A DNA stretch of 64,000 nucleotides, from positions 48,747 through 112,746 of the forward strand of contig CBDCFW010000002.1 in NCBI GenBank assembly GCA_965216465.1. The letters run 5' to 3'. The first letter of the stretch is position 1. Every line of letters begins with the position of its first letter. A program made the position numbers and the translations under genes. The notes beneath the pieces were generated by a model. That model saw only the letters and a list, made by a program, of their open reading frames with translations, ran no database searches and had not been told where the DNA came from. Positions 33,079 through 49,947 of the stretch are shown in pieces. This stretch comes from Bacteroidia bacterium (GTDB taxonomy: Bacteria > Bacteroidota > Bacteroidia > NS11-12g > UBA9320).

Positions 33079-34920
33079 TTATTGAATAATTAGTCTTTCA
33101 GTATAAGATCCGTTTTCTGTAGCTACTTTGATGAAGTAGATGCCAGATTCAAACGCTGAAACATTTATGGCTTTAAATACTTTGCTTTGATTAACATCTT
33201 CAGACATTATAGTTTGTCCATTGATGGTGATAATTGAGTAGTTTAGAACCACACCTTGGCTTACTTCGAAATCAAGTGTTAACTTGTCAGAAGCAGGATT
33301 TGGATACACATTAAATGTGTTAAAATCTGGAAGATTTCTAACCGATGCACCATTTCCTTTGCTAAAGAATAGATTATCTAGATAAATTACACTTGAACCA
33401 GTTGGTTGAGAAACCAATATGATTTGAGCCATGTTGTTAGTCGCCGTTAAACCTGTAAAGTCTGCAAGTGGAATTCTGTAATTAATCCACTGCTCTGTTG
33501 CAGGAGCATCAAATACCAATTCATGCTCAGTGTCATCTCCGCCACCAAAAGCCTGATCAGCACCAAAGTCAACAAGCTTAATTTTAAACTGCGTTGAATT
33601 TGGCGACCAAATATCGAAGTTAATGTGGTCCATATCAGATGCATCAACAAGGTTTGCACCTACAGTCTCAATACCTACAAAATCCATTGAAGAGTATTTT
33701 TTAGCGTCATTTCCATCGATTTGAACATCAGTTAAGGTAGCACTTGACCAAGGAGTTCTCCATGTGTCAACCGTTACATCAGTGTAAACTCCACTGAACA
33801 GAGATATTACATTAGCCGCATCAAAAGACGGGTCATCTGGACCAGCCATTGGTTCAGCTAAAGAACTTCCTTTACTAAAGAACATATTGTCTAAGTAAAT
33901 AACACTTGTTCCGCTTGGTTGCGATACTAAAATGTATTGAGCTAAGTTAGAAGTCGCTCCTAGACCGGTAAAGTCTGTTAATGGAATATGATAATTAACC
34001 CATTCTTCTGTTGCTGGGGCGTCGAAAACTAATTCATGCTCGGTATCATCGCCACCACCAAATGCTTGGTCCGCACCAAAGTCAACTAGTTTAATTTTGA
34101 ATTGAGTAGAATTGTGTGACCAAATATCAAAGTTGAGATGTTCCATTCCAGATGCATCAATCAAGTTGCCACCAACTGTTTCAATACCAACAAAGTCTAG
34201 TCCTGAATATTTTTTTACATCATTTCCAGCAACTTGAACATCGCTAAGGGTAGCACTTGACCAAGGCGTTCTCCAGGTATCAACAGTTACATCGGTGTAA
34301 ACATTGCTAAACATAGAAATAACACTGTCTTCATGGAACTCAGGGTCTGCAGCAGCAACAGTAGGCTCTGGAACGCTTGCAGCAGGGCTAAATGTAATAT
34401 TGTCGAAATAACAAATGTTCTCAGAGGATCTTGCTTGGAAATCCATGAAAATTACGATTTGATCATATTCTATTCCTGCTCTGGAAGAGAAATCAAAAGT
34501 TAATTCTTCCCATTCGTTGGTTTTTGTATTTGCAACCTTAATTTCACCTAAAGATCCACTATTGTTCTCAACCAGTTTAATACCAACATCGCTGATCACC
34601 GGCTTGTAAACCATTATTTTAATAGTAGAAGTATTTGCATCTAAGGTGAATTTACCAATTCCTGCCCCGTGCAACGTTTCACATCCAGCCCAAGGCTGGC
34701 CGGTCGACCTAGCAGTAAACTTAGCTACAGAATCGCTGGTGTTTGGAGCCAACTTACTGGGATTAGCGACAATCTCTAAAGCAGGGTTGTCGTCGTTTTC
34801 AAATGTGGTCCATGTCCACGAAGCTCCGTTTCCTCCAGACTCAAAGTCGATAGGAACGTTTTGCGCAAAACTTAGGCTTGATACAAGCACGAGTAGGCAA
34901 AGTAGTGTATGTTTTTTCAT
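33079..34920 (-). CDS. T9SS-secreted non-catalytic glycan-binding protein (three CBM-like modules)
   Basis: Start ATG 34920 (MKKHTLL...FAQ); one jelly-roll module plus two duplicated ~167-aa modules; CTD VYPNPASD...GIYFIKV; no GH catalytic motif seen; adjacent to the beta-glucan locus. Confidence 0.75.
   Translation of the reverse strand: MKKHTLLCLLVLVSSLSFAQNVPIDFESGGNGASWTWTTFENDDNPALEIVANPSKLAPNTSDSVAKFTARSTGQPWAGCETLHGAGIGKFTLDANTSTIKIMVYKPVISDVGIKLVENNSGSLGEIKVANTKTNEWEELTFDFSSRAGIEYDQIVIFMDFQARSSENICYFDNITFSPAASVPEPTVAAADPEFHEDSVISMFSNVYTDVTVDTWRTPWSSATLSDVQVAGNDVKKYSGLDFVGIETVGGNLIDASGMEHLNFDIWSHNSTQFKIKLVDFGADQAFGGGDDTEHELVFDAPATEEWVNYHIPLTDFTGLGATSNLAQYILVSQPSGTSVIYLDNMFFSKGSSLAEPMAGPDDPSFDAANVISLFSGVYTDVTVDTWRTPWSSATLTDVQIDGNDAKKYSSMDFVGIETVGANLVDASDMDHINFDIWSPNSTQFKIKLVDFGADQAFGGGDDTEHELVFDAPATEQWINYRIPLADFTGLTATNNMAQIILVSQPTGSSVIYLDNLFFSKGNGASVRNLPDFNTFNVYPNPASDKLTLDFEVSQGVVLNYSIITINGQTIMSEDVNQSKVFKAINVSAFESGIYFIKVATENGSYTERLIIQ
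33355..34368 (-). repeat. Intragenic tandem duplication: two 501-bp copies (33355-33855 and 33868-34368)
   Basis: Both encode VIS.FS.VYTDVTVDTWRTPWSSATL...FKIKLVDFGADQAFGGGDDTEHELVFDAPATE...VIYLDN.FFSKG. Confidence 0.9.
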
Positions 34921-34964
34921 TGCATTAATTTTTATATGTGCCATCAAAGAAAGAGAAAAAAACT

Positions 34965-34984
34965 TAAAGTACAAAACACCATAA
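34965..34984. promoter_or_regulatory. Candidate NrtR-family operator in the divergent promoter region
   Basis: GT-ACAAAAC-AC (GT-N7-AC core, 34969-34979) with AT-rich flanks. Confidence 0.4.
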
Positions 34985-35042
34985 GTATCATTTTTCCATA
35001 TATTTGTCATTATCTAGTTTATATATATTTGTCATCACAGAG

Positions 35043-35768
35043 ATGAAAAATCCACAAACCTATTTTTTTACAGAAGAGAATTCATCACTCGGTGAATTCT
35101 TAAGTTTCGGACTGTCAGTAGATTGTGTGGTATTTGGATATCACGAAGGTGAGGTTCAAGTATTATTGGTTGAACGTGGAGCTGAACCCTATAAAGGAAG
35201 TTGGGCGTTGGTTGGAGATTTGGTACACCCAAGAACAGACTTGGCAAGTTCTGCAGATCGTATTTTAGAAAACTTAACAGGACTCAAAGGAATTTTTATG
35301 GAGCAGTTTCATACCTTCGATGAAATTGACAGACACCCACTTGGTCGTGTGGTAACGGTGGGCTATTACTCTCTAGTGCAATCTAAACACTATCATCCTG
35401 TTGCATCGGCTTGGGCTAAGTCAACGCGGTGGTTTAGTATTAGAAATCTTCCTGAGTTGGCATTTGATCATCAGGTTATACTCGATCGTGGTATTCGTAC
35501 CTTAAAGCGACGTGTGCGTTATCGACCGGTAGGATTTGAGTTATTGCCTCCAAAATTTACATTAGGAGAGCTTCAATCTTTATATGAGGCTTTACTCGAC
35601 TGTAAATTTGATAAACCTAACTTTAGAAAAAAGATTCTGAAAATGAATTTAATAACTCCTTTGGACGAATATGAAGAGAATGTTTCTCACCGTCCGGCTA
35701 AGCTATATGCTTTTGACGAAGCGCAATACAATGCCCTCAGAAAAGAAGGGTTTGCTTTCGAACTTTAA
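35043..35768 (+). CDS. NrtR/AraR-family Nudix-wHTH transcriptional regulator
   Basis: SVDCVVFG, WALVG, RHPLGRVVTVGY, LAFDH, FTLGELQSLYE, NFRKKIL, HRPAKLY; degenerate Nudix box; start at ATG 35043. Confidence 0.88.
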   Translation: MKNPQTYFFTEENSSLGEFLSFGLSVDCVVFGYHEGEVQVLLVERGAEPYKGSWALVGDLVHPRTDLASSADRILENLTGLKGIFMEQFHTFDEIDRHPLGRVVTVGYYSLVQSKHYHPVASAWAKSTRWFSIRNLPELAFDHQVILDRGIRTLKRRVRYRPVGFELLPPKFTLGELQSLYEALLDCKFDKPNFRKKILKMNLITPLDEYEENVSHRPAKLYAFDEAQYNALRKEGFAFEL

Positions 35769-35879
35769 ACCGCTTTTCTTAACTCAAAGTCCATCTTTTT
35801 CACATATTAATTGTTATTTGATTTAAGGAACTATTTTTTTAATAGGTCTGTAAGCCTTGTAATGACGCGAAATTTTTAG

Positions 35880-35900: not shown

Positions 35901-35937
35901 GTTATTACATTCGTAGAATTAAGTTATTCTTTAAATC

Positions 35938-38900
35938 ATGTTTAATAAAATCTTACCATTCATTGTCTTGTTGAGTTTTACGCTAAATTCAACAGGCAAA
36001 AGCGGTGAAAGGTTGAACAATAATCCAAATGATTATTTAATTGCTGAACTAAATAATTCAGCACTAGTTAGCCATCCGCTTACATCACAAAATGTCCAAG
36101 TAGTTAGAACATCAAGCGGGTATAGATTAGAAGTCGATGGCAAGCCTTTTTTTGTCAATGGGATGAACTGGGATTATTTTCCAATAGGAACCAACTTCAA
36201 TTACAGTTTATGGAAGCAATCAGATGATCTGATTAAGTCAGCACTTGACGCTGAAATGTCTCTGCTTCAAAATATGGGAGTCAATTGTGTTCGTATGTAT
36301 ACAGGAGTGCCAGCAAAGTGGATCGAATACATTTATAACAACTATGGGATTTACACCATGCTTAATCATTCATTTGGTCGATATGGTCTAAATATAGATG
36401 GCAATTGGTATCCAAATACAGACTACTCCAATCCAAAAGTTCAAGAGCTGTTAATTGACGAAGTGACAACCATGGTTTCAGACTATCAAAATACACCAGG
36501 GTTACTTCTTTTCCTTTTAGGCAATGAAAATAATTACGGGCTATTTTGGAGAGGTGCAGAAACTGAAGATATTCCAATTCAAGATAGACAGTCAACAAAA
36601 GACGCTCAAAGCATGTATAAGCTTTTCAATGATGCTACAATAGCGATGAAGAAGATTAGTACTACTCGACCAATTGCAATTTGTAATGGCGATTTGCTTT
36701 TCTTAGAAATTATTGCTAGTGAATGCAAGGATGTTGACATTTTGGGTATTAATGCCTACAGAGGATTGACATTTACAGATATGTTTGATCGTGTAAATTC
36801 AGAACTTGGTAAACCCGTATTGCTAACAGAGTTTGGGTCTGATGCATTTAATGCAATTGAAAACCAAGAAGATCAAGCCTACCAAGCCGAGGTGCTTATA
36901 AGCAATTGGAAGCACATTTATGCCAATGCAGATGGTATGGGAAACAACAACAATGTTTTGGGTGGATTTACTTTTCAATTTAGCGATGGATGGTGGAAAA
37001 CGGGTCAAACCAAAGAACTTGATATTCACAACGCTCAGGCCTCATGGTCTAACGGCGGATATCGAAATGATTTTGAAGAAGGAGAGAATAATATGAATGA
37101 GGAGTGGTTTGGAATATGTGCAAAGGGGCCGACAAATGAAAGAGGAACCTACGAGCTCTATCCAAGAGCTGCATATTATGCGTTGAAGGAAGTTCACATG
37201 CTCAACCCTTACACCTCAGGTCCAGCAGCTTTAAACACAGTTCAAGAAGTTTCTGTTATGGGGGCCATGCTCAAAGCTCGTGGAGATAAGGCGGCATTGG
37301 CAGCTAATGATAAAGGAAAGTTGTATCTAAGTAACCTTCAAGCGAACTTCAATACCTACAATACAGGTGGGGATTTGATATCAACTCCGGTTAATGCTGA
37401 CCCAAGTGGCACAACATATCCATCAAATTTAGGATTTGATCACCTTCAATCTTTTAATGTTGGCGTTACCGCTAAACCTACATCAAACATGAGAGCGACG
37501 GTTCAGTTTAATGTTTTAGGGAATGTTGCAACCAACCCTATTGATGAGATTTTTTATGAAAATAGAGGAAGACCAGTAATGGTTCAAACCTTGAACGGAC
37601 CTCAACAGATTAACTCTAATAATAGAGTTCAATTGTATAGGGCCGATTACAGTTGGGATACTCGGGCCTTCAAAATGACTGGCTTCTATAGAACTGGTCA
37701 TTATCACTGGGGGTATGAAGGAGACTTTTTCGGTCTATATCCCGAAGCCAACTACGGCCCTAATATTGACATATATAACGGAAATGCACCTTTTGGTTTT
37801 GAAATGGAAGGTAAAAAGTATCTCGAAGGATTAAAATTTGCATTTGGTCCTGAATTATGGTGGGGGGCTAACCCGGCATTCTTGTTAAAGTACAGCAAAA
37901 AGGTGGCTGGTATGGACGTGACTGGAATTTTCCATGAAGACATCACACAGCGAAACAACTTACAAAGTTCATTTGCTGTGCCGGTTCCGAAGACAAGAAG
38001 AGCGACTCTAGTTGTAGCCAAAAAAATGGAGAAACTCACATTTGACCTGGGTGGTATGTGGGGTGGACAACCGCTAAATGGTAGAACTTTTCAAATTGTT
38101 AGCGAAAATGTAGTTTATGAAGATAAGATTCAGTCGAGCGACAACTTTGGAGGAAAGGTTAAACTAACCTTTAGTAGCGGACCTATTAAATGGTATGGTT
38201 TAGCATCTTATATGGGACTTGTAGCCAATGGTGGTTACGATCAAACTCAAACCTTTACAGGATGGAGATTGAAAGATATTGGAAGCGGAAATATGTACAA
38301 CGCCCTAACTGGTTTTACATACAATGTTGGTGACATTCAAATTGCACCTAACTTCCTATTTCAGAAACCTCTGGCTGGGCCAATTCCAACAACGTTTGAA
38401 GCTCCTGCTCGTCCTAGAAACATTTTAAGTGATCCTTTTTCGGTTAGAGGAAATCGAGAAACGGTCGGAGGGGAGTTATTAATTACGTATGATCCAACTC
38501 CTGCTACTTGGATGTATCAATGGGATAATGATCGAATGGAAGATGCAAAATTTGCCATGAGTACAGGCTTTGTATATCGCCATTTGCCTACAGTTCAGGA
38601 TGCTGCAATTGGTATTTTGGGTAACGGGCGTACCACTTTTGTATTCCCGGGATCTGCTCCTGCACAAGACTTGTGGGAGATGAATGTAAGAATGGTTTCT
38701 AAGATTAGTCCGGAGTTTGGAATAATTGGAAATGTTCTTGTAGGAAACGGTCAAGCAAATGGAAGTGATGAACGGACCATTAATCGTTATGGGGTTGACG
38801 TACGTACGATTTACAAAAAAATGAAACTAATCGCCATTGCTAAATTTGACGATTGGGGACCTTTTGATTATCATCGAGATTTTAACCAAACCTATCCACT

Positions 38901-39138
38901 TCAACTGATTGGAGATATTTCATTGGAAATTGGTAAACCCGATTGGTTTATGTTACCGGGTACAAAGATTGGCTTACGTACAACATATAGAACGCTAGAT
39001 CAATATTCTAACCGTTATGCACCTGCATATATGATAAACAATTCTGGAATCCTAGTGCCTGATCCAACAGCACCTGGGTTCCCAAATGGAAATGAATGGG
39101 AAGTTAGAACCTATATTCAAATCAACATTAATAATTAG
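35938..39138 (+). CDS. Clan GH-A glycoside hydrolase (GH2 TIM-barrel/GH158-like) fused to a predicted outer-membrane beta-barrel
   Basis: Signal peptide; VDGKPFFVNGMNW, GVNCVRMY, LGNENNYG (acid/base), LLTEFG (nucleophile), NEEWFG; C-terminal ~600 aa of amphipathic strands ending WEVRTYIQININN. Confidence 0.75.
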   Translation: MFNKILPFIVLLSFTLNSTGKSGERLNNNPNDYLIAELNNSALVSHPLTSQNVQVVRTSSGYRLEVDGKPFFVNGMNWDYFPIGTNFNYSLWKQSDDLIKSALDAEMSLLQNMGVNCVRMYTGVPAKWIEYIYNNYGIYTMLNHSFGRYGLNIDGNWYPNTDYSNPKVQELLIDEVTTMVSDYQNTPGLLLFLLGNENNYGLFWRGAETEDIPIQDRQSTKDAQSMYKLFNDATIAMKKISTTRPIAICNGDLLFLEIIASECKDVDILGINAYRGLTFTDMFDRVNSELGKPVLLTEFGSDAFNAIENQEDQAYQAEVLISNWKHIYANADGMGNNNNVLGGFTFQFSDGWWKTGQTKELDIHNAQASWSNGGYRNDFEEGENNMNEEWFGICAKGPTNERGTYELYPRAAYYALKEVHMLNPYTSGPAALNTVQEVSVMGAMLKARGDKAALAANDKGKLYLSNLQANFNTYNTGGDLISTPVNADPSGTTYPSNLGFDHLQSFNVGVTAKPTSNMRATVQFNVLGNVATNPIDEIFYENRGRPVMVQTLNGPQQINSNNRVQLYRADYSWDTRAFKMTGFYRTGHYHWGYEGDFFGLYPEANYGPNIDIYNGNAPFGFEMEGKKYLEGLKFAFGPELWWGANPAFLLKYSKKVAGMDVTGIFHEDITQRNNLQSSFAVPVPKTRRATLVVAKKMEKLTFDLGGMWGGQPLNGRTFQIVSENVVYEDKIQSSDNFGGKVKLTFSSGPIKWYGLASYMGLVANGGYDQTQTFTGWRLKDIGSGNMYNALTGFTYNVGDIQIAPNFLFQKPLAGPIPTTFEAPARPRNILSDPFSVRGNRETVGGELLITYDPTPATWMYQWDNDRMEDAKFAMSTGFVYRHLPTVQDAAIGILGNGRTTFVFPGSAPAQDLWEMNVRMVSKISPEFGIIGNVLVGNGQANGSDERTINRYGVDVRTIYKKMKLIAIAKFDDWGPFDYHRDFNQTYPLQLIGDISLEIGKPDWFMLPGTKIGLRTTYRTLDQYSNRYAPAYMINNSGILVPDPTAPGFPNGNEWEVRTYIQININN

Positions 39139-39160: not shown

Positions 39161-40567
39161 ATGAATACGAATCAAAAATATATTAGAGTAGTTGGCTTTT
39201 TGGTGTTGGTGATGGCATTTATGGGTTGTGAAAGAGAGTTGTCAGATGATGCTGTTCTGCCTTCTTTTTCTACAACAGCAGAAATCTTTTTAGATGATTT
39301 TATTGGTTTAGGAACAGATTTTTATCTGCCTTTCGCCGATGCGAAACCAGATGTATTTTCGGTAGACCGCTCAGAAGGATTTGAGAGCAACGCATCAATA
39401 AGAATTGATGTACCTAATGCAACAGACCCTTCAGGAAGTTATGCCGGAGCAATTTTTAGAGTTGATGGTCCGGGTAGAGACTTAACAGGATATGACGTTT
39501 TAACGTTTTATGTTAAAGCTTCACAGGGCATAAGTTTAGGAAGCGTGGGGCTTGGTCTAAACTATGAGGGAGATGCATATCGTGTCGCCTTAAATAATGT
39601 TAATGTCGGTACAAATTGGACTAAAATTACCGTTCCAATTCCGGATCCTTCAAAATTAAGTGAAGAGCGCGGATTGTTTTGGTTCGCTGCTGGAACCCAA
39701 GGAACTAACGGATCGGGATATGCACTATGGTTTGATGAGATTAAATACGAAAAGATGCCTACTATTCGACAAGTAAGTTCTGAAATTTTTGATGGGAACA
39801 ACAATTCAGTAAAGGCATTTACAGGATCATCGTTAACCATAACAGGGTTAAATCAAGTTTTTAATTTGGAGAATGGCGAAGATGTAATATCAACTGCAGC
39901 ACCAGCATACTATGAATTCGTATCAACAGATACCGCAGTAGCCAAAGTTAATGCGTTGGGAGAAGTTGACGTTGTTGGAGCTGGAAATGCAGAAATAACA
40001 GCCTCATTAGCAGGTGAGCCTTCTTTGGGCAAAGTGAGCATTGAATCGTTAGGACCATTGCCACCATCACCGGTGCCTACAAGAGCCGCAGCCGATGTTT
40101 TATCTATTTTCAGTGATGCTTATTCGACTGCTACGGTTCCAAACTTTACACCCGGATTTGGAGGTTCAACTACCGAAACAACAGTGTTAACGACAAGCAA
40201 TGGAGAAGTTTTGCAGTATACAAGTAATAACTTTACAGGAATCATGTTTGTTGATGATCTTTTAGATGGAAGTGCAATGAATTACCTCCATATAGATGCA
40301 TATGTTCAACAGGCTGGAGTTTCGATTGGTGTACAAATTAGAGATGTAGGTCCAAATCAGAATATCGAAACCAATATATTCAATGGGTTGCCAGAAGGAG
40401 ATGATAAAGATTATCGAGCCACTTTGAACGGATTCCAAGTTGGGGTATGGAAATCATTTGATATTCCTCTAGCCGGAAACATTGCAAACCAGAAGAATAA
40501 CTTGGGAGCTATTATTATTACGGATGGACCAAACTTCATTTTAGACAACATATATTTTTACAAGTAA
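39161..40567 (+). CDS. Surface lipoprotein with CBM-like, Ig-like (Big2) and glycan-binding modules
   Basis: Start ATG 39161, FMGC lipobox; STDTAVAKVNALGEV Big2 motif; C-terminal module (VLSIFSDAY...LDNIYFYK) resembles the repeats of 33079-34920. Confidence 0.75.
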   Translation: MNTNQKYIRVVGFLVLVMAFMGCERELSDDAVLPSFSTTAEIFLDDFIGLGTDFYLPFADAKPDVFSVDRSEGFESNASIRIDVPNATDPSGSYAGAIFRVDGPGRDLTGYDVLTFYVKASQGISLGSVGLGLNYEGDAYRVALNNVNVGTNWTKITVPIPDPSKLSEERGLFWFAAGTQGTNGSGYALWFDEIKYEKMPTIRQVSSEIFDGNNNSVKAFTGSSLTITGLNQVFNLENGEDVISTAAPAYYEFVSTDTAVAKVNALGEVDVVGAGNAEITASLAGEPSLGKVSIESLGPLPPSPVPTRAAADVLSIFSDAYSTATVPNFTPGFGGSTTETTVLTTSNGEVLQYTSNNFTGIMFVDDLLDGSAMNYLHIDAYVQQAGVSIGVQIRDVGPNQNIETNIFNGLPEGDDKDYRATLNGFQVGVWKSFDIPLAGNIANQKNNLGAIIITDGPNFILDNIYFYK

Positions 40568-41412: not shown

Positions 41413-44400
41413 ATGCAAACGAGCACAATGGAATCTCAAGAAGTGGAAATTGATATTAGCAGAACCATCATTGATGGTGAGAAATTCTTCCGAATTACAA
41501 ACCATGACTTCATGCGTCCGTTTTTTATGAGCATTGTTAGCGATTCGAATCACTGGATGTTTATATCAAGCAATGGTGGATTAACTGCTGGAAGAAAAAA
41601 TTCTGAATATGCTCTATTTCCGTATTACACAGATGATAAAATAACTGAATCATCAGAGACAACAGGTTCAAAAACGATTATTAGGGTCAAAGGAGAAGGC
41701 AAAACTCATGTTTGGGAGCCTTTTTCAGTTCGCTCCGATGGATTCTATTCAACAACTCGAAACTTGTACAAAAATATCTTTGGCAACAAGATAATTTTTG
41801 AAGAGATCAATCACGATTTAGAGCTGGTATTCAGATATAAGTGGTCTTCAAGCAACAGGTTTGGTTTTGTTCGCAAGGCATGGATCGAGAATATCTCAAA
41901 TGAAGAAAAAGAATTCTCCTTTGTTGATGGCATACAAAATATTATGCCGGCGGCTGTTGGATCTGATATACAAAATACAACCAGCAACCTTGTCGATGCA
42001 TACAAGAGAAGCGAGCTAATCAAAAAAGTTGGTCTAGGGATATATGCTTTAAGTGCAGTTATTGTCGACAAGGCAGAACCTAGCGAAGCTCTAAAGTCGA
42101 ATGTGGTATGGTCTTACGGATTAGATGCTCCTATGTATCTACTTTCGACCTTGCAACTTACCAAGTTTAGAAAGGGGCTTCCATTAAAAGAAGAAACAGA
42201 TGTAAAAGCTGAAAAAGGAGCCTATTTTCTTCAATCCTCAGCGGTGCTAAAGCCTGGGGATTCCAAACAATGGACCATTTTAGCTGATGTGAACAAAGAT
42301 CATCGATCGATAGCGCAGCTTGTTCATGATATTAAGTCTAATCCCTCAATAGCTGAAGTTGTAAATTCAAATATTGATTTGGGTACAAAACGGCTCACAG
42401 CGTTGAATGCTTCTGCAGATGGACTTCAGTTAACTGCAGATAAGTTCAAAAATGCAAGGCATTATTCAAACACGTTGTTTAATGTTATGCGGGGAGGAGT
42501 GTTTGATAACAATTACAAGATTGAAAAACGTGATTTTACGAATTATATAAAAGCGGCAAATACGCGAGTGTATGAGCGTCAACAAGGCACGATTGAGTCG
42601 CTAAAATCAGAATTTTCATGGTTTGATTTGAATGATATTTCAAAGTCTACCACTGACATGGACTTTAAGAGGCTTTGTACAGAATACATGCCTTTAAAAT
42701 TTAGCCGTAGACATGGTGATCCGAGTAGACCATGGAATAAATTCTCGATAAACACAAGAAGTGAGATTGACGGTTCTAAGATTTTAGATTATGAGGGAAA
42801 TTGGCGAGACATATTTCAAAATTGGGAGGCATTGGCATTGTCGTTTCCTGCTTTTTCAGAAAGCATGATCTACAAGTTTTTAAATGCTTCCACCTTTGAA
42901 GGGTACAACCCTTATCGCGTTACCAAAGACGGTTTCGATTGGGAAACAATCGAGCCAGATAACCCTTGGTCGTATATCGGATATTGGGGTGATCACCAAA
43001 TTATATATCTATTAAAACTCTTAGAGCTTACAGATAAACATTATCCGAATAAACTTAAAGGCTATTTTGATGAAGAGAGCTTTGTTTATGCGAATGTTCC
43101 GTATAAAATTAAGAGTTATGAGCAGATTTTAGAAAACCCGAAGGATACCATAGAGTTTGACGAAAATCTTGATGCTGATATCAGGCGAAGAAGGTTAGAA
43201 ATAGGTGGCGATGCAGCACTCGTACAAGATGAGAATGCGGCCATTTACAAGGTTACGTTTATTGAGAAAATGCTAGCTATGGTGTTGTCTAAGTTGTCTA
43301 ATTTTATTCCTGAAGGCGGCATTTGGATGAATACACAACGACCTGAATGGAATGACGCAAACAATGCCTTAGTCGGCAATGGGGTTTCGATGGTAACACT
43401 ATATTACCTGAGAAGATTTTTGGTGTTCTTCCAAAAACAAATCTCAGAAGGAACACAAGAACGTGTTGCGGTTTCTAACGAATTAATCATCTTCTATAAA
43501 AAGGTGAGAGAAACGTTTGAAGAAAACAAAGCTCTGTTAGTCGGTTCAATAGGCGATGAAGATCGACGTGCAATTCTCGATGCGGTAGGATTAGCCGGTA
43601 GCAAATACAGAGAACACATTTACAAGCAAGGCTTTTGGGGTGAAAAACGTACGATTTCGTATAGCGGCTTAAATCGTTTTGTTTCTCTGAGCTTAGACTT
43701 TATAGATCACAGTATTCAAGCCAATATTCGAAAAGATGGTCTTTATCATGCGTATAATCTGATGACTGTCGAAAATGAAAAGAGTGTTAGCATTTCATAT
43801 CTCAATGAAATGCTCGAGGGACAAGTTGCAGTGTTAAGCTCTGGTTTCCTTTCACCTATTGAAGCGCTAGAAGTACTCAATGCACTGAAGCAAAGTGCGT
43901 TATTTAGAGACAATCAGTACAGCTACTTGCTATATCCGGAAAAGGATTTAGCAGGATTTATGGATCGCAATACAATTCCGGCTTCGGAAGTAGAAAAATC
44001 TCAATTATTAACTGCTCTGATCGAGAAGAACAACGATCAAGTAATTACCAAAGATGTTAATGGAGAATATCACTTCAATGGGAATTTTAAGAATGCTGCT
44101 GATCTCAAATCAGCCTTGAATAGATTAGAAGGAACTGAATTTTCATCTTTAGCCAAAGAAGAATCAGCTAGTGTTTTGGCCATATTTGAAAAAGTATTTA
44201 ATCACAAATCATTTACCGGGAGGTCTGGAACCTTTTATGGGTATGAAGGATTAGGCTCGATATATTGGCACATGGTTTCTAAGCTCTTGTTAGCAGTTCA
44301 AGAGGTTTGCCTACAAGCTGTTGAGGCTGAAGAGAGTGATAAAACGATTGGAAAATTACTTGAGCATTATTATGAGATTTACGCTGGACTTGGTGTTCAC

Positions 44401-44865
44401 AAATCTCCTGAATTGTATGGAGCTTTTCCTACTGACCCCTATTCGCATACACCAGCTGGAAAAGGTGCCCAACAGCCAGGAATGACAGGCCAAGTTAAGG
44501 AAGATGTACTATGCAGGTTTGGAGAGTTAGGCGTTTTTGTCAACGAGGGAAACATAATGTTTTATCCTTGTCTACTGCTTAAAGACGAGTTCATTAAGAA
44601 ACCTCGCACATTTGAGTTCGTTGATATTGAAGGCAATGAGCAAAGCGTCAATCTAAACATCGGCTCGCTGGCATTTACTTACTGTCAGGTGCCTGTTGTT
44701 TACATCATTGCAGATAAGGGCCGACTAGAGATTGAAAAGAATGATGGCAGCTTATTGGTAAATAATTCTCTCAAGCTCGACAAAAGCGTGAGTAGAGAAA
44801 TGTTTAGCAGAACAGGTGTTATTAGCAAAATAACTGTTTATGTGGATGAGTCCATTTTAAAATAG
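41413..44865 (+). CDS. GH149 beta-1,3-glucan phosphorylase
   Basis: 1150 aa, no signal peptide; RRHGDPSRPWN, YEGNWRDIFQNWE, EWNDANNAL, YEGLGSIYWHM, GAQQPGMTGQVKE; laminarin-locus context. Confidence 0.85.
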   Translation: MQTSTMESQEVEIDISRTIIDGEKFFRITNHDFMRPFFMSIVSDSNHWMFISSNGGLTAGRKNSEYALFPYYTDDKITESSETTGSKTIIRVKGEGKTHVWEPFSVRSDGFYSTTRNLYKNIFGNKIIFEEINHDLELVFRYKWSSSNRFGFVRKAWIENISNEEKEFSFVDGIQNIMPAAVGSDIQNTTSNLVDAYKRSELIKKVGLGIYALSAVIVDKAEPSEALKSNVVWSYGLDAPMYLLSTLQLTKFRKGLPLKEETDVKAEKGAYFLQSSAVLKPGDSKQWTILADVNKDHRSIAQLVHDIKSNPSIAEVVNSNIDLGTKRLTALNASADGLQLTADKFKNARHYSNTLFNVMRGGVFDNNYKIEKRDFTNYIKAANTRVYERQQGTIESLKSEFSWFDLNDISKSTTDMDFKRLCTEYMPLKFSRRHGDPSRPWNKFSINTRSEIDGSKILDYEGNWRDIFQNWEALALSFPAFSESMIYKFLNASTFEGYNPYRVTKDGFDWETIEPDNPWSYIGYWGDHQIIYLLKLLELTDKHYPNKLKGYFDEESFVYANVPYKIKSYEQILENPKDTIEFDENLDADIRRRRLEIGGDAALVQDENAAIYKVTFIEKMLAMVLSKLSNFIPEGGIWMNTQRPEWNDANNALVGNGVSMVTLYYLRRFLVFFQKQISEGTQERVAVSNELIIFYKKVRETFEENKALLVGSIGDEDRRAILDAVGLAGSKYREHIYKQGFWGEKRTISYSGLNRFVSLSLDFIDHSIQANIRKDGLYHAYNLMTVENEKSVSISYLNEMLEGQVAVLSSGFLSPIEALEVLNALKQSALFRDNQYSYLLYPEKDLAGFMDRNTIPASEVEKSQLLTALIEKNNDQVITKDVNGEYHFNGNFKNAADLKSALNRLEGTEFSSLAKEESASVLAIFEKVFNHKSFTGRSGTFYGYEGLGSIYWHMVSKLLLAVQEVCLQAVEAEESDKTIGKLLEHYYEIYAGLGVHKSPELYGAFPTDPYSHTPAGKGAQQPGMTGQVKEDVLCRFGELGVFVNEGNIMFYPCLLLKDEFIKKPRTFEFVDIEGNEQSVNLNIGSLAFTYCQVPVVYIIADKGRLEIEKNDGSLLVNNSLKLDKSVSREMFSRTGVISKITVYVDESILK

Positions 44866-44866: not shown

Positions 44867-46147
44867 ATGATGAAAAACAGAATTCGCTCATATCAAATTA
44901 TCTTACTTGTAATGGTTATTTGGTCATGCAATTCACAATCAGAACAAAAAGACAAACTACAACATATGAATACAACTACTGCTTCTCAAATATTAGGCAA
45001 CTCAAAAACCAAGGCGATAAGCTATGGGGGATATCGGGGTACAAGCAGAGATGAACAACCGACTATTGATCAATTGAAGCAAGACATGAGAATCTTGTCG
45101 TCCATAAACATAAATTTGCTGCGTACGTACAATGTGCAATTCGAGCATGCTGGTAATGTACTTCAGGCAATTAGCGAGCTAAAAGCTGAAGACTCGACTT
45201 TCGAAATGCATGTCATGTTGGGAGCATGGATCGATTGTGAAAATGCCTGGACGGATACAACGCCCAATCACAATGCTGAAGACAGAGAAGGAAATACAGC
45301 TGAAATCGCTCGTACTGTTGACTTAGCAAAAAAGTACCCTGACATTGTTAAAATAATTGCGGTTGGAAATGAGGCTATGGTAAAGTGGGCTCACAATTAC
45401 TATGTGCAACCTGGTGTCATTCTTGGTTGGGTAAATCATCTTCAAAAGCTGAAAGCCGAGGGTGAGCTAGATAAAGACCTCTGGATAACTAGCTCTGACA
45501 ACTTTGCATCGTGGGGTGGAGGAGATTCCAGTTATCACGTAAAAGATTTAGAACAACTAATTAAGGCCGTAGATTTTGTGTCGCTCCATACCTACCCTAT
45601 GCACGACACACACTTCAATCCAAGCTTTTGGGGTGTCATGGACGCCGAACTTCATCTTTCACCAGAAGAAACTCTAGATGCGGTTATGGAGCGTGCTTTG
45701 CTTTATGCTAAGAAACAGTATGCCAACACGGTTAGTTATGTTCATAGCATAGATAGCACCAAGCCAGTTCATATCGGTGAAACAGGATGGGCTAGCAAAT
45801 CATCAGGCTATTATGGCGAAAATGGCTCAAAGGCTTGCGATGAATACAAGCAAGGTGAGTACTATAAGAAGATTAGAAATTGGACAGACAAAGCAGGAAT
45901 AACGTGTTTCTATTTTGAAGCTTTTGATGAAAAATGGAAGGATGCAGCAAACCAGAACGGCTCAGAAAATCACTTTGGTCTATTTACCGCGGATGGAAAA
46001 GCCAAATATGCGGTGTGGAATGAAATAGAGAAAGACGGTTTTAACGATTTAACAAGAGATGGCAATCCGATTACAAAAACCTATTCGGGAAGTGTTGATT
46101 CGCTGTTGCTTGAAGTAGAACTGCCATTGATAAAACAACTTAAATAG
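44867..46147 (+). CDS. GH17 beta-1,3-glucanase/glucosidase, lipoprotein
   Basis: WSC lipobox; ISYGGYR, LLRTY, IAVGNEAM, IGETGW, YFEAFDEKWK, ENHFGLF. Confidence 0.88.
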   Translation: MMKNRIRSYQIILLVMVIWSCNSQSEQKDKLQHMNTTTASQILGNSKTKAISYGGYRGTSRDEQPTIDQLKQDMRILSSININLLRTYNVQFEHAGNVLQAISELKAEDSTFEMHVMLGAWIDCENAWTDTTPNHNAEDREGNTAEIARTVDLAKKYPDIVKIIAVGNEAMVKWAHNYYVQPGVILGWVNHLQKLKAEGELDKDLWITSSDNFASWGGGDSSYHVKDLEQLIKAVDFVSLHTYPMHDTHFNPSFWGVMDAELHLSPEETLDAVMERALLYAKKQYANTVSYVHSIDSTKPVHIGETGWASKSSGYYGENGSKACDEYKQGEYYKKIRNWTDKAGITCFYFEAFDEKWKDAANQNGSENHFGLFTADGKAKYAVWNEIEKDGFNDLTRDGNPITKTYSGSVDSLLLEVELPLIKQLK

Positions 46148-46152
46148 ATCGA

Positions 46153-47634
46153 TTGAAAAAACTTCCAATCATATCAGCTTTAGTGTTTTTGATGGCTTGC
46201 CAAAACAAAATGAATTTGAATGTAAATGTATACCAAACTTCAGCTGGTGGAGACCAACTTTCGCCAAAAACGGAATTTGTGCTCTCCGGTTCTCTTTCTT
46301 CAATTGTAATTAAGCCGGAAGAAAAGTTTCAAACGATTTTAGGCTTTGGTGGTTCGTTTACCGAGTCTTCGGCTTACCTTTTAAACGGTCTTAGTGAAGA
46401 CAAGAGAAATGAAGTTTTACAAGCTTATTTTGGTGATGACGGAGCAAGATATTCATTGACCAGAACGCATATGAACTCGTGCGACTTCTCATTGACTCAG
46501 TATTCTTATGCACCTGAGGAGGATCTATCGCTTGACAGCTTTTCAATACACGAAGATCTAGACGACATTGTACCCATGATTAAAGATGCGATGGATGTTA
46601 GTTCTGATGGATTTAAATTGATTAGCTCTCCATGGACCGCTCCGCCGTGGATGAAAGACAATAACAGTTATGTTGGCGGTAAACTACTTCCTAAATACTA
46701 CGATACATGGGCCCTGTTCTTTTCAAAGTACTTAGATGCTTATAGTTCGGAAGGAATTGATATTTGGGGATTTACAGTAGAAAACGAGCCTCATGGCAAC
46801 GGGAATAACTGGGAGAGTATGCTTTATTCACCGAAAGAAATGACCGACTTCGTTCGCGAGCACTTGGGTCCAAGATTAGAGCAGGATGGTTATGGCGACA
46901 AGATAATTCTCGGTTACGACCAAAACCGTGCAGGTTTGCAAGAATGGGTCGATGAAATGTATAAAGACGAAGCCTCAAGTAAGTACTTTGATGGTGTTGC
47001 TATCCATTGGTATGAAAGCACATTCGAGGTGTTTCCTGATGCACTTCAATACGCACATAACAAAGCTCCAAATAAATACATAATTGAGACAGAAGGCTGT
47101 GTAGATTCTGAAGTTCCTAAATGGAAGGGTGATAAATGGTATTGGTCTAAAGAAGCAACCGATTGGGGATGGGATTGGGCACGTGAAGAAGAAAAATACT
47201 TACACCCGAAATATGCCCCAGCTAATCGCTATGCAAGAGATATTATTGGATGTCTAAACAACTGGGTTGAAGGGTGGATTGACTGGAACATGGTTTTAGA
47301 CAAACAAGGTGGTCCCAATTGGTTTAAGAATTGGTGTGCGGCCCCTGTCCTGGTAGATACTGAAACTGACGAGGTGTACTATACTCCGTTGTACTATGTC
47401 ATGGCACATTTCAGTAAGTATATCCGTCCAGGAGCAACCCGAATAGGAATTGAAACCAGCGATGATGAGCTACAAGCTAGTGCTGCTCAAAATACAGACG
47501 GTCAGATTGTTGTGGTAGTTTTTAATGAGGGATTGACGGCTAAATCGTTCAGGTTGGAAATTAACGGTGTAAGCACAGAAATTTTGATAGAAGCTCAGGC
47601 CATACAAACCATATTAACTCAACAAAACGAATAA
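46153..47634 (+). CDS. GH30 (GH30_1-like) beta-1,6-glucosidase/glucanase, lipoprotein
   Basis: TTG start, MAC lipobox; GFGGSFTE, SPWTAPPWMK, TVENEP, IETEGC, WIDWNMVLD, HFSKYIRPGA. Confidence 0.88.
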   Translation: MKKLPIISALVFLMACQNKMNLNVNVYQTSAGGDQLSPKTEFVLSGSLSSIVIKPEEKFQTILGFGGSFTESSAYLLNGLSEDKRNEVLQAYFGDDGARYSLTRTHMNSCDFSLTQYSYAPEEDLSLDSFSIHEDLDDIVPMIKDAMDVSSDGFKLISSPWTAPPWMKDNNSYVGGKLLPKYYDTWALFFSKYLDAYSSEGIDIWGFTVENEPHGNGNNWESMLYSPKEMTDFVREHLGPRLEQDGYGDKIILGYDQNRAGLQEWVDEMYKDEASSKYFDGVAIHWYESTFEVFPDALQYAHNKAPNKYIIETEGCVDSEVPKWKGDKWYWSKEATDWGWDWAREEEKYLHPKYAPANRYARDIIGCLNNWVEGWIDWNMVLDKQGGPNWFKNWCAAPVLVDTETDEVYYTPLYYVMAHFSKYIRPGATRIGIETSDDELQASAAQNTDGQIVVVVFNEGLTAKSFRLEINGVSTEILIEAQAIQTILTQQNE

Positions 47635-47637
47635 ATT

Positions 47638-49053
47638 TTGAATGCAATAACGAATAACAAAGTACCAATGGGGCAAAAAATTGCCTTTGGTCTAGGAATG
47701 CTTGCGAATCAAATGTTTCCTGCAGTGATGGGAATATTTATGGTCGTTTTAGTACAAGACCTCGGTTTCCCAGGTTGGATGTGGGGAGTGATCTTTTTTC
47801 TTCCTCGGGTATTTGATTCCATTACAGACCCTATCATGGGATTTATCTCAGACAATACCAAATCAAAGTGGGGTAGGCGCAGGCAGTATGTGTTTATCGG
47901 AGCCTTGATTATGGGCATTTCCTTCTGTGTTTTGTGGCAGCTGTACAAGTCGAATACAGTTGAATACAACTTTGTTTATTTCATGTGCTGGTCGTTTGTT
48001 TTTTACCTAGGATTAACCATTTTCAGTGTTCCCTATGTTGCTATGGGCTACGAAATGAGCGACGACTTTCACGAAAGAACGAGCATAATGGCTGTTGCAC
48101 AATGGATAGGTCAATGGGCATGGGTAATAGCCCCTTGGTTATGGGTAATTATGTATGATAAAGGCTGGTTTGATTCTGCTGAAGTGGCAACACGTACTTT
48201 AGCAGTATGGGTTGGAATAATTTTTATGCTCTGTGCTATGGTTCCTGCAATTTTTATAAAGAGTCGATCTACATTAGATGAAGACTACATGCCAATAAAT
48301 TTAAAAAATGTAGGAGGGAGCCTAACCTACATTTTTAATGGATTTATAGAAGCTTTTAAGATAAAGCCATTCCGAAAACTGTGTATTTCAACGTTTCTCA
48401 TCTTCAATGCATTTAATACGGTAGCAACATTTACTTTCTTCATAATTGTGTATCACCTTTTTAATGGAGATGACGGAGCAGCAGGTATTTGGCCAACATT
48501 GTTTGGAAGTATAGGAGCGTTAATTACGACGTTCTTAGTCATACCAACCGTGGCATTTATGTCGAAGCGTTTGGGCAAAAAGAGGGCGTTTATTTGGTCA
48601 CAAGGCATCTCAATAGTTGGTTACATTATGCTCTGGTTTCTGTTGATTCCAGGTAGACCGTATATGTTCATATTCACCTTGCCATTTTTTTCTTTTGGAA
48701 TTGGAAGCCTATTTACTTTAATGATGTCGATGACTGCAGATGTTATTGACCTCGACGATTTAAATACAGGCCAAAGACGTGAGGGAATATTTGGTGCTAT
48801 TTACTGGTGGATGGTGAAATTTGGTTTTGCAATAGCAGGATTAGCAAGTGGTGCAATTTTATCGTTAGTTGGATTTGATGCCAATTTAGATGTACAACCC
48901 GATGGTGCCATTACAGGACTGCGGCTGTTCTTTTCAGGACTACCAATCGCCGGTACGCTGATAGCCATCGCGGTAATGTGGAATTATGATGTAACCGAAG
49001 AAAAAGCGAAAAAAGTAAGTGCCGCTTTAAAGGCAAGAGCAGAATCTGAATAA
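47638..49053 (+). CDS. MFS transporter, GPH (glycoside-pentoside-hexuronide) family
   Basis: DSITDPIMGFISDNTKSKWGRRR, TGQRREGIF, about 12 TM helices. Confidence 0.9.
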   Translation: MNAITNNKVPMGQKIAFGLGMLANQMFPAVMGIFMVVLVQDLGFPGWMWGVIFFLPRVFDSITDPIMGFISDNTKSKWGRRRQYVFIGALIMGISFCVLWQLYKSNTVEYNFVYFMCWSFVFYLGLTIFSVPYVAMGYEMSDDFHERTSIMAVAQWIGQWAWVIAPWLWVIMYDKGWFDSAEVATRTLAVWVGIIFMLCAMVPAIFIKSRSTLDEDYMPINLKNVGGSLTYIFNGFIEAFKIKPFRKLCISTFLIFNAFNTVATFTFFIIVYHLFNGDDGAAGIWPTLFGSIGALITTFLVIPTVAFMSKRLGKKRAFIWSQGISIVGYIMLWFLLIPGRPYMFIFTLPFFSFGIGSLFTLMMSMTADVIDLDDLNTGQRREGIFGAIYWWMVKFGFAIAGLASGAILSLVGFDANLDVQPDGAITGLRLFFSGLPIAGTLIAIAVMWNYDVTEEKAKKVSAALKARAESE

Positions 49054-49065
49054 AAATTCAATAAA

Positions 49066-49947
49066 ATGAGTAGAAGAGCAGGAAGAAAACTAGCCTTAGC
49101 TGGAGTTGATAACACAACTTCAATTGAGGATTTGAGAAAGATGTCAAAAACCGTACTAGAGACTGGAATGCATGGCATTTGCTTTAGCATGTACGAAGAT
49201 GGCCAAGAGCCAGGAGATATAATAACCGAAGATCAAATTCGAAGAAGGATAGCGGTCTTGGCTCCATATACCCAATGGATAAGAAGTTTTTCTTGTACAG
49301 AAGGCAATGAATTGGTGTCAAAAGTAGCAAAGGAATATGGGCTCAAGACGTTGGTTGGAGCATGGTTAGGACCCGATAAAGAAAAGAACCAAACCGAAAT
49401 GGACGGTTTAAAGAAATTGGTTGATAAAGGCTTGGTTGATATTGCAGCAATTGGCAACGAGGTAATGTACAGAAAAGACCTAACGGAGGATGAATTGTTG
49501 GCTTACATGCATGATTTCAAAGCTGCTTGTCCGGAGGTTGAAATGGGCTATGTAGATGCCTATTACGAGTTTGGAGCTCGCCCGAGAATAACTGAAGCGT
49601 GTGATGTGATACTTTCCAACTGCTATCCATTCTGGGAGGGTTGCCCGATAGATTATGCCTTGCCTTATATGAAAGATATGTACCATCAAGCTGTGCGAGC
49701 AGGCGACGGTAAAAAAGTAATCATTACTGAAACAGGTTGGCCAAGTGAGGGTGGAGGATTTGAAGGTTCTACCGCATCAGAGCGAAACTTTTTGAAATAC
49801 TTTATCGACGCTCAGAAATGGTCGGTAAACGAAGAGATTGAGATGTTCTATTTTTCATCGTTCGATGAATCGTGGAAGGTAGGTGATGAAGGCGATGTGG
49901 GAGCTTATTGGGGCTTGTGGGATAAGGATGAGAAGCTGAAGTTTTAG
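49066..49947 (+). CDS. GH17 beta-1,3-glucosidase, cytoplasmic (no signal peptide)
   Basis: WIRSFS, AIGNEV, NCYPFWEG, ITETGWPS, FSSFDESWK, YWGLW. Confidence 0.88.
   Translation: MSRRAGRKLALAGVDNTTSIEDLRKMSKTVLETGMHGICFSMYEDGQEPGDIITEDQIRRRIAVLAPYTQWIRSFSCTEGNELVSKVAKEYGLKTLVGAWLGPDKEKNQTEMDGLKKLVDKGLVDIAAIGNEVMYRKDLTEDELLAYMHDFKAACPEVEMGYVDAYYEFGARPRITEACDVILSNCYPFWEGCPIDYALPYMKDMYHQAVRAGDGKKVIITETGWPSEGGGFEGSTASERNFLKYFIDAQKWSVNEEIEMFYFSSFDESWKVGDEGDVGAYWGLWDKDEKLKF

Follow-up and report, generated by a model that had tools for sequence, protein, structure and literature searches.

Formosa sp. Hel1_33_131 has three polysaccharide utilization loci (PULs) that are induced by laminarin (Unfried et al. 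2018, PMC6246565). One of them, PUL 2 (FORMB_24670-24750), has no SusC/SusD inside according to Supplementary Table S3 of that paper, and runs from a "hypothetical protein"/"glycoside hydrolase, GH2 family" (24670) and a second hypothetical protein (24680) through genes for glycoside hydrolase (GH) family 16 (24690), PKD (24700), GH149 (24710), GH17A (24720), GH30 (24730) and a transporter of the major facilitator superfamily (MFS; 24740) to a GH17 (24750). Here we describe an operon with the PUL 2 gene order, lacking the PKD protein that stands between GH16 and GH149 in Formosa, within positions 33079-49947 of a window from a Bacteroidia bacterium. The window is the whole stretch of DNA analyzed, 64,000 nucleotides (C2:48747-112746), and the source genome comprises 3.23 Mb in six contigs and is rated 100% complete. 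Two structural models together with fold searches indicate that the product of the first operon gene is very probably a glucanase joined to an outer-membrane barrel; that of the second is a lipoprotein. We propose, with a probability of roughly 45%, that these proteins form a TonB-independent glucan channel, in which the barrel would be the outer-membrane passage for laminarin oligosaccharides, the tethered glucanase would sit at its periplasmic exit, and the lipoprotein would bind glucan at the surface.

Several features of such clusters are already documented. According to the supplementary data of PMC6246565, FORMB_24670 carries a signal peptide (SignalP) and has a BOMP score of 1, and in the membrane proteome it accounts for 1.186% riBAQ (relative intensity-based absolute quantification) on laminarin versus 0.006 on glucose, a 196-fold increase that places it above the laminarin-induced TonB-dependent receptors of PUL 1 (0.459% riBAQ) and PUL 3 (0.449% riBAQ). 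FbGH17A, FbGH30, and the GH17B module of Formosa have been characterized biochemically (PMC6246565). The laminarin locus of Muricauda lutaonensis (PMC13188888) has the same gene order, with a LuxR-type regulator where the locus described here has one of the NrtR type, and its first gene is labeled "GH2 beta-glycosidase". GH149 genes of Bacteroidetes have been reported both in PULs and in "CAZyme clusters lacking susCD" (CAZyme, carbohydrate-active enzyme), together with GH16, GH17, GH30, or GH3 (Kuhaudomlarp et al. 2018, PMC5827456), and "GH149-GH0-..." laminarin PULs are listed by Sidhu et al. 2023. The expectation of an earlier note on this DNA that similar gene sets occur in other marine Bacteroidota is thus borne out by Formosa PUL 2, by Muricauda, and by the susCD-less clusters.

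The available text of PMC5827456 does not identify an outer-membrane component for the susCD-less GH149 clusters. Our literature search found no paper mentioning the barrel of the fusion, although figures in the PDF supplements of PMC6246565 may show domain drawings; it found FORMB_24670 in no main text, and no Bacteroidota paper that pairs "TonB-independent" with laminarin. The locus type is already known, and the barrel half of its first gene, along with the pairing of that gene with the lipoprotein, is under-described.

The glucanase-barrel fusion and its partner lipoprotein

The fusion, its two main parts, and the partner lipoprotein lie at the following window positions (parts of the fusion as delimited in AlphaFold 2 (AF2) models):

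35938..39138, plus strand: glucanase-barrel fusion (P0001), 1066 aa, with a signal peptide at aa 1-20 (AF2 models, fold searches)
36085-37248, plus strand: enzyme domain of the fusion
37321-39132, plus strand: barrel of the fusion
39161..40567, plus strand: partner lipoprotein (P0002), 468 aa from a probable start at an inner Met in an open reading frame (ORF) that begins at 39086; lipobox FMGC

In the full-length AF2 model (mean pLDDT (predicted local distance difference test) 84.5, pTM (predicted template modeling score) 0.76, 38-row alignment), a disordered stretch after the signal peptide leads into a (beta/alpha)8 domain (aa ~50-437), followed by a helix (aa 440-457) and a barrel of 26 strands (aa 462-1065). 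Pfam assigns only a weak Glyco_hydro_2_C match to aa 103-330 and leaves the ~600 C-terminal residues without a family. Because the VIA-align run with the full-length model covered aa 46-452, the barrel was folded and searched alone; the AF2 model of aa 440-1066 (43 rows) reaches a pLDDT of 86.4 and a pTM of 0.83, with the same 26 strands.

The enzyme domain is predicted to be a glucanase fold of clan GH-A, closest to GH158 and GH157, and its activity is likewise a prediction. In Foldseek, its best matches are the GH158 laminarinases 9p26, 9oro, and 6pal (E 5e-15 to 8e-14), then GH157 9g5g (to E 4e-13), and in VIA-align they are GH157 (Z 28.8) and GH158 9oro (Z 28.3) and 6pal (Z 25.9), with GH2 and GH5 only 1-2 units behind. 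A family profile of the domain detects 6pal (E 8.2e-10) and 9oro (E 1.4e-9) over ~190 positions, and beta-galactosidases at 1e-5; a single-sequence search of the PDB with the whole fusion returned only beta-galactosidases (E 0.09-0.55), and neither 6pal nor 9oro. Two glutamates, E197 (in GNENNYG) and E298 (in TEFG), are each kept in 30 of the 35 aligned rows that have a residue at that position. By analogy with clan GH-A, we take E197, within an N-E motif, to be the acid/base and E298 to be the nucleophile. A distant full-length member of the family, P0151 (1218 aa), carries a CBM_4_9 module N-terminal of the enzyme domain, an arrangement that bears on the side of the membrane which this domain faces.

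Along the barrel, the connections between strands alternate between long (18, 36, 34, ...) and short (2, 3, 6, 2, ...), and the strands are amphipathic, with one hydrophobic face (+1.22 on the Kyte-Doolittle scale, compared with -0.97 for the other face). Together, the alternating connections and the single hydrophobic strand face are as in outer-membrane barrels in which strand 1 begins on the periplasmic side. In the fold searches with the barrel alone, all 50 listed Foldseek rows and all 50 listed VIA-align rows are membrane beta-barrels, nearly all of the outer membrane, with a few mitochondrial and chloroplast barrels (Tom40, VDAC, SAM, TOC) among the VIA-align rows. Heading the VIA-align rows are FimD, an usher (Z 14.5 with 356 aligned residues, model residues 22-627), and AlgE (Z 14.4), and further listed matches include Occ porins, PapC, MtrB (Z 11.8, 412 aligned), LptD, ScrY, and chitoporin. 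TonB-dependent transporters are also listed (PfeA at Foldseek E 1e-8, SusC BT1762 at Z 11.7, BtuB at Z 11.4), not above the ushers, AlgE, or the porins, and the sugar porins 1a0t, 1mal, 7vtz, and 5mdo appear at scores similar to those of many other barrels. Identities of 6-12% and TM-scores of 0.2-0.4 are typical of these matches, with no family above the rest. We therefore place the barrel in no particular structural family.

At the level of sequence families, the barrel has no match in Pfam, NCBIfam, or the PDB, and the fusion as a whole matches none of PF07715, PF00593, and TIGR04056. Alignment of the fusion-family profile to the SusC of the source genome by hhalign gave a probability of 0.09%, and neither the barrel nor the enzyme domain nor the lipoprotein has a paralogue in that genome. 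Over 27 divergent rows, mean column conservation is 0.40 in the strands, 0.39 in the loops, and 0.41 in the turns of the barrel, with higher values in the following regions:

L3 (aa 585-618, aromatic-rich): mean conservation 0.56
L4: mean conservation 0.69
L12: mean conservation 0.60
Long turn, aa 852-872: mean conservation 0.58

Conserved loops, we infer, are not what would be expected of a mere membrane anchor.

The partner lipoprotein is predicted to be lipidated at Cys23, where the lipobox FMGC is followed by acidic residues. Acidic residues after the lipobox cysteine constitute a surface-export signal in Bacteroidota lipoproteins. The protein consists of an N-terminal beta-rich domain, a middle Big_2 Ig-like domain, and a C-terminal domain resembling a carbohydrate-binding module (CBM); Cys23 and several aromatic residues are invariant in a 38-row alignment. 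Its profile matches the PDB firmly in the Ig-like Big_2 middle part (E 4.5e-17) and weakly in the end domains (1wmx, E 0.046; 1v0a, endoglucanase H, E 0.11), and Pfam and NCBIfam yield only a weak Big_2 hit and no match to the SusD family. The C-terminal module is 27% identical to aa 387-551 of the protein encoded divergently upstream of the operon, which is predicted to be secreted by the type IX secretion system (T9SS). The label "CBM-like" for the lipoprotein is plausible but weakly supported at the sequence level.

The T9SS protein itself has a sorting domain at its C-terminus (PF18962, 59 bits, cut-off 27; TIGR04183, 52.5 bits, cut-off 23), along with three repeats that resemble CBMs. Its similarity to known CBMs is weak (CBM_11, E 0.0047; CBM_48), as is a match of aa 62-177 to PDB 8qx6 ("PKD domain-containing protein", 165 aa; E 0.0023), and the lipoprotein shows no match of the latter kind in sequence or profile searches of the PDB. 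We presume, as a guess only, that 8qx6 is the crystal structure of the laminarin-binding "CBMxx" of Zuehlke et al. The earlier note had spoken of two CBM-like binding proteins in the locus; the similarity is indeed present in both proteins, but it is no more than weak, and the T9SS protein is encoded on the minus strand outside the operon. In other loci, the lipoprotein after the fusion varies between 463 and 990 residues (L024, L034, L041, L051, L054, L055, L079, L086, and others), with conserved ends and extra modules inserted between them, a pattern that resembles multi-CBM surface glycan-binding proteins.

The operon and its genome

Apart from the fusion and its partner, the locus contains the following genes:

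33079..34920, minus strand: T9SS-secreted CBM-like protein (P0003) with a signal peptide; the 643-codon ORF runs to 35010, with the probable start at Met codon 31
35043..35768, plus strand: NrtR/AraR-type Nudix-related transcription regulator, divergent from the T9SS gene; the ORF begins at 35004, with a probable Met start at 35043
40571..41398, plus strand: GH16 endo-beta-1,3-glucanase, lipoprotein (PF00722, E 3.8e-24; lipobox VSSC)
41413..44865, plus strand: GH149 beta-1,3-glucan phosphorylase, signal peptide absent and hence cytoplasmic (NF058639, 1760.9 bits against a cut-off of 1150)
44867..46147, plus strand: GH17 endo-beta-1,3-glucanase, lipoprotein, close homologue of FbGH17A (PF00332; lipobox IWSC)
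46153..47634, plus strand: GH30 beta-1,6-glucosidase or glucanase (debranching), lipoprotein (PF02055, E 7.8e-74, and PF17189; lipobox LMAC)
47638..49053, plus strand: GPH-family MFS symporter of the inner membrane (MFS_2, E 9.8e-65; TIGR00792, 184 bits)
49066..49947, plus strand: short GH17 without a signal peptide, thus cytoplasmic (PF00332, E 1.3e-9)

All ten genes within 33079-49947, with families assigned by Pfam and NCBIfam, agree in position and kind with the inventory of the earlier note. Eight plus-strand genes separated by gaps of 1-22 nt form the operon, in the order fusion, lipoprotein, GH16, GH149, GH17, GH30, GPH-type MFS, and short GH17. In the locus as a whole, CAZymes and binding proteins are co-located with a regulatory gene, all for a single glycan. 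This arrangement is not due to chance: 79 related loci, spread over many families, show it as well, and the series fusion, lipoprotein, GH16, GH149 is found again across Bacteroidota. The locus is almost certainly a beta-1,3-glucan utilization operon of a known, widespread type.

Several of the enzymes match solved structures. GH16 matches the laminarinases 2hyk, 3atg, and 3azx at E 1e-72 to 1e-66, with the beta-1,3-glucanase 2hyk best (E 1.9e-72); GH149 matches the beta-1,3-oligosaccharide phosphorylase 6hq6 at 1645 bits; and the first GH17 aligns over its full length with 6fcg, the endo-laminarinase FbGH17A of Formosa Hel1_33_131 (E 1e-176). For GH30, NF053856 scores 241 bits, below its cut-off. 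The short GH17 is 23% identical to the first GH17 of the operon and is the counterpart of the GH17B module, which is fused to the MFS transporter in some marine strains (PMC6246565), unlike here, where the MFS and the second GH17 are separate genes. The N-termini suggest how these proteins are distributed over the cell: a plain signal peptide begins the fusion, lipoboxes mark the partner lipoprotein, GH16, the first GH17, and also GH30, and neither is present in GH149 or the second GH17.

No match to the TonB-dependent receptor, Plug, SusD, or GH3 families was found in any of the 10 locus proteins (E <= 0.01) or in any of the 38 other scanned ORFs of the window (E <= 1e-4), as the earlier note had also stated for SusC, SusD, and GH3. 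An adjacent susC-like/susD-like pair is absent, which places the locus outside the strict susC/susD-based definition of a PUL. The regulator combines NrtR_WHD (E 2.8e-26), AraR_C, and NUDIX domains in Pfam, and its NF050029 score of 130 bits lies below the cut-off. A search for an operator upstream of the operon found no inverted repeat of at least 10 nt, and a scan for sigma-70 promoters, with two sites found where 4.4 were expected, was not informative; Bacteroidota promoters deviate from the sigma-70 consensus. A search for sequencing runs that contain this DNA listed no RNA run and four DNA-type runs, which come from one study.

Of the 18 TIGR04056 (SusC) matches across the source genome, two score above the cut-off, and C2 carries none of the 18; PF07980 matches once, on C3. 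One of the two SusC/SusD pairs lies at C3:5000-24999 (locus L012), where SusC and SusD are accompanied by two unassigned proteins, a divergent T9SS GH16 (549 aa), an MFS transporter, a second NrtR/AraR-type regulator, a kinase-like gene, a HAD phosphatase/mutase resembling beta-phosphoglucomutase, GH65, and a divergent GH13-CBM48 protein with a T9SS tail. This SusC is 25-29% identical to SusCs linked to GH149, which among themselves share 30-36% (two pairs 54% and 79%), so that substrate is not separable by identity. Because the identities do not settle the matter, the substrate class was read from the GH13/GH65/beta-phosphoglucomutase-like neighborhood, and by its gene content L012 is a PUL of the alpha-glucan type in which a single GH16 is out of keeping. 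At the second pair, C6:88000-107999 (L013), SusC is followed by a SusD-like_2 protein, then by a surface protein of the Ig-like kind and a "Lipid_bd putative hydrolase", with no CAZymes. The genome's only GH3 match, at C6:825836-826786, falls within a frame of 988 codons, far from any glucan locus. The genome-wide search for a laminarin susCD that the earlier note had recommended thus returns two pairs, one in an alpha-glucan-type PUL with a divergent T9SS GH16 and one free of CAZymes, and a dedicated laminarin SusC/SusD, such as Formosa has in its further laminarin PULs, is not evident from the gene content of this genome. The two glucan loci, L012 and the operon, have in common a regulator of the NrtR/AraR type, which is unusual.

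Elsewhere in the window, 6187-9600 (plus strand) encodes a 1137-aa protein with WD40 beta-propeller repeats and a C-terminal caspase-like Peptidase_C14 domain. Further T9SS cargo is encoded at 22360-26199 (minus strand; 1279-aa PKD-repeat protein), 54696-55991 (minus strand; FG-GAP repeat), and 57896-59125 (plus strand; Kelch-repeat). Two regions contain genes for ECF-type (extracytoplasmic function) sigma factors: at 27747-31413 (minus strand), the sigma factor gene is followed by unassigned ORFs, beside a 595-aa CarboxypepD_reg-domain protein, and at 59245-63351 (plus strand) an unassigned ORF of 392 aa and a DUF7619/DUF11 protein of 778 aa come after it.

Distribution and synteny across Bacteroidota

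Relatives of the fusion are numerous. Of 8000 candidates scored in a word-indexed search with the full-length protein, 5408 reached E <= 0.001; the best 120 of these 5408 are 73-100% identical over the full length and are named "glycosidase", "GH2 TIM barrel-domain containing", or "hypothetical". In an exhaustive search of representatives clustered at 50% identity, 1975 clusters reached E <= 0.001, and 300 of these reached E <= 1e-30, with full-length members down to ~27% identity. The barrel alone retrieved 5240 proteins, the best 120 of which have identities of 75-88% and come from several orders. Judged by these sequences, the barrel is under strong constraint.

A collection in which each species is represented by a single genome contains 602 stretches that code for a relative. 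From these we kept 79 loci, those most similar to the query and mutually related, so that the counts below are not independent, and searched their ORFs with the window proteins and three SusC/SusD pairs (phmmer, E < 1e-8). They derive from Flavobacterium, Algoriphagus, Chitinophagaceae, Saprospiraceae, Cytophagales, Balneola, Mariniphaga, and others; Flavobacterium degerlachei DSM 15718, Algoriphagus taiwanensis, and Flavilitoribacter nigricans are among the carriers with a species name. For each gene, the count over all 79 loci is followed by that over the 62 loci with at least 9 kb downstream:

Lipoprotein homologue as the next gene after the fusion: 72/79; 61/62
GH16: 71/79; 62/62
GH149: 62/79; 57/62
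GH17: 48/79; 45/62
GH30: 47/79; 44/62
MFS: 46/79; 45/62
NrtR-type regulator: 5/79; 4/62, and hence not conserved with the locus
SusC/SusD within 10 kb: 1/79 (L062); 1/62

The proposal that the first two operon genes, in the slot normally held by susC and susD, are a hydrolase-barrel fusion and a lipoprotein therefore agrees with the AF2 models and fold searches described above, and with a position that is kept in most of these loci.

A sample of the phylum comprised 401 genomes at least 90% complete, the source genome included. GH149 occurs in 75 of them and a match to the fusion (E <= 1e-20) in 51, of which 50 also have GH149. Forty-two of the 51 possess a full-length frame, and the other nine have the enzyme part only (404-536 codons, two of them interrupted). 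For these nine, and for 20 out of 25 genomes that have GH149 but no fusion match, we fetched up to 40 kb around the enzyme or GH149 gene. Three of the nine barrel-less enzymes occur with SusC/SusD: in G011, the order is SusC, SusD, CBM protein, GH16, enzyme, GH149, GH17, MFS; in G163, it is SusC, SusD, GH16, enzyme, GH149; and in G207, a unit of SusC, SusD, GH16, and GH149 lies ~13 kb from the enzyme gene. The N-terminus of the stand-alone enzyme is readable in eight cases, with a plain signal peptide in three, a lipobox in five (mostly without an acidic stretch after the cysteine), and a T9SS domain in none, which fits a periplasmic location of the enzyme.

Among these 20 GH149 genomes, seven of one genus-level group (G095, G167, G175, G227, G267, G339, and G391) encode a lipoprotein of ~335 aa, a distant relative of the enzyme domain, adjoining GH149. 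Two or three GH17 genes and an MFS gene accompany it, and a barrel or SusC/SusD is absent within ~18 kb, representing a third layout of the pathway.

Proposed passage of glucan across the outer membrane

In the TonB-independent channel that we propose, laminarin would be captured at the cell surface by the T9SS CBM-like protein and the partner lipoprotein and cut into oligosaccharides by the GH16 lipoprotein. The chains would then cross the barrel without TonB energy, to be cleaved at its periplasmic mouth by the tethered glucanase, which would block back-diffusion in the manner of a ratchet. GH30 would remove the beta-1,6 branches and the GH17 lipoprotein would shorten the chains; short oligosaccharides would be imported by the GPH symporter, and the cytoplasmic short GH17 and the GH149 phosphorylase would convert them to glucose and glucose-1-phosphate, saving ATP. 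A periplasmic enzyme domain is favored because of the topology pattern of the barrel and the signal peptides of the stand-alone homologues; this orientation, like any contact between fusion and lipoprotein, is something we infer and not a result. The order implied by the "cut and channel" of the earlier note may accordingly be the reverse of what was proposed, with the channel first and the cut afterwards.

A more far-reaching version, to which we attach less confidence and which we put forward only tentatively, is that the fusion and the lipoprotein constitute a second, TonB-independent glycan importer of Bacteroidota, in which hydrolysis, not proton-motive force, would give one-way transport, possibly in a processive manner and with the lipoprotein feeding the chain. 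Processivity has been reported for GH158(Pro). If true, such an importer would be widespread, given the 602 relatives in the one-genome-per-species collection and a full-length copy in 42/401 Bacteroidota genomes.

A number of observations weigh against the proposed channel. In Formosa, the SusC/SusD pairs of PUL 1 and PUL 3 are themselves laminarin-induced, and the "selfish" uptake of this organism is attributed to SusCD (PMC6246565); the earlier note had named a co-induced laminarin SusC/SusD elsewhere in a genome, along with unimpaired uptake after deletion of the fusion gene, as grounds for abandoning a SusCD-independent system, and the former is what the data on Formosa B contain. FORMB_24670 is, moreover, a presumed counterpart of the fusion on the grounds of gene order, annotation, and BOMP score only. 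In the source genome, the SusC/SusD pair on C3 adjoins a T9SS GH16, and 16 further TonB-dependent-receptor-like frames score below the SusC cut-off. One locus, L062, carries both SusC/SusD and the fusion. The fetched span yielded no SusC for six of the nine genomes with a barrel-less enzyme (some contigs being short), and among the 20 GH149 loci without a fusion match, three have a SusC/SusD pair, two a SusC-like gene alone, and 15 neither. Clearly, outer-membrane uptake for GH149 clusters can be encoded elsewhere. The survey of GH149 loci suggested in the earlier note is accordingly two-sided: susCD is rare beside the fusion, with a nearby pair at 1/79 full-length fusions versus 6/29 other GH149 loci, but in many GH149 clusters there is no barrel and no susCD nearby either.

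These same observations favor the strongest alternative, that the barrel is an anchor or scaffold for a periplasmic glucanase, with uptake via SusC/SusD, other TonB-dependent transporters, or porins encoded elsewhere, and with the operon as a downstream processing module; some laminarin PULs have indeed been suggested to be helper modules (Kappelmann 2019). We nevertheless consider it unlikely. Stand-alone homologues make do with plain signal peptides or lipid anchors, next to which a barrel of 600 residues and 26 strands would be a costly means of attachment. Among close relatives, conservation is higher in the barrel than in the enzyme domain, and the barrel loops are conserved as much as the strands. 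The recurrence of the conserved lipoprotein as the next gene, and the scarcity of SusC/SusD beside full-length fusions relative to other GH149 loci, are likewise not what a mere anchor would lead one to expect.

Type Va autotransporters consist of an N-terminal passenger, a linker helix, and a C-terminal 12-strand barrel. The fusion has the same order of passenger, helix, and barrel, including an 18-residue helix immediately before strand 1, and could thus display its glucanase at the surface, threaded out via its own barrel with helix 440-457 in the pore, to work beside GH16 and the lipoprotein while uptake proceeds by another route. The CBM_4_9 module ahead of the enzyme domain in P0151 would suit such a location, and the title of the BuGH158 paper speaks of "cell surface glycosidases". 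Set against this are the 26 modeled strands in place of 12, the stand-alone homologues with a plain signal peptide (3/8) or a lipobox mostly lacking the acidic export signal and in no case a T9SS domain, and the GH16 lipoprotein already available in the operon for the cut at the surface. No autotransporter occurs in the 50 listed rows of either fold search, although non-listing is not evidence of absence. On balance, surface display appears improbable. Least probable by far is that the barrel is a translocon or docking platform that carries or holds the lipoprotein at the surface without passing glucan, since, even though the fusion-lipoprotein gene pairing (with a gap of 22 nt here) and a possible binding surface of conserved barrel loops would agree with it, the fusion to a glucanase would be unexplained and, to our knowledge, other Bacteroidota surface lipoproteins need no dedicated barrel this large.

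Which of these readings holds has consequences beyond this genome. Laminarin is described as among the largest marine carbon fluxes, and field studies read laminarin consumers from SusC/SusD expression (PMC6298971). If the TonB-independent channel is real, a widespread uptake route free of SusC/SusD and TonB would be invisible to surveys based on SusC/SusD, and would account for part of the marine and freshwater laminarin turnover now credited to that pair; the susCD-based definition of Bacteroidota glycan loci would need a second class; and a channel with a covalently attached hydrolase would represent a novel way of building a one-way importer for polymers. Should the barrel be no more than an anchor, this is an ordinary laminarin cluster of a kind already described. 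As FORMB_24670 is among the most strongly laminarin-induced membrane proteins of Formosa, the question is directly testable in cultured strains, and the barrel with its paired lipoprotein makes the assumption that SusC/SusD is the glycan gate of the phylum directly testable as well.

Each half of the fusion has relatives among known systems. The solved GH158 and GH157 enzymes (BuGH158, 6pal; GH158(Pro), 9oro; LaGH157, 9fz9) have in common with its enzyme domain the clan GH-A (beta/alpha)8 fold and a link to beta-1,3-glucan loci, but they are only 11-20% identical to it and have no barrel. LamB, ScrY, chitoporin, AlgE, FimD/PapC, LptD, and MtrB share with its C-terminal half the fold of an outer-membrane beta-barrel, and the large ones (FimD, MtrB) align across the whole domain; to judge by the titles of their entries, none of these channels, unlike the fusion, carries an attached glycoside hydrolase. 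SusC barrels have 22 strands, whereas 26 are modeled in the fusion, which is without a Plug/TonB match and has as its N-terminal domain an enzyme too large for a plug. Canonical PULs share the enzyme families GH16_3, GH17, GH30_1, GH149, and GH158, the last of which the BguR preprint lists for the F. agariphila PUL, which has SusCD. Like the operon described here, the canonical laminarin PULs (Kappelmann 2019, variants A and B, and the F. agariphila BguR PUL) open with a barrel protein of ~1000 residues and a surface lipoprotein of ~470 residues, placed before a surface GH16.

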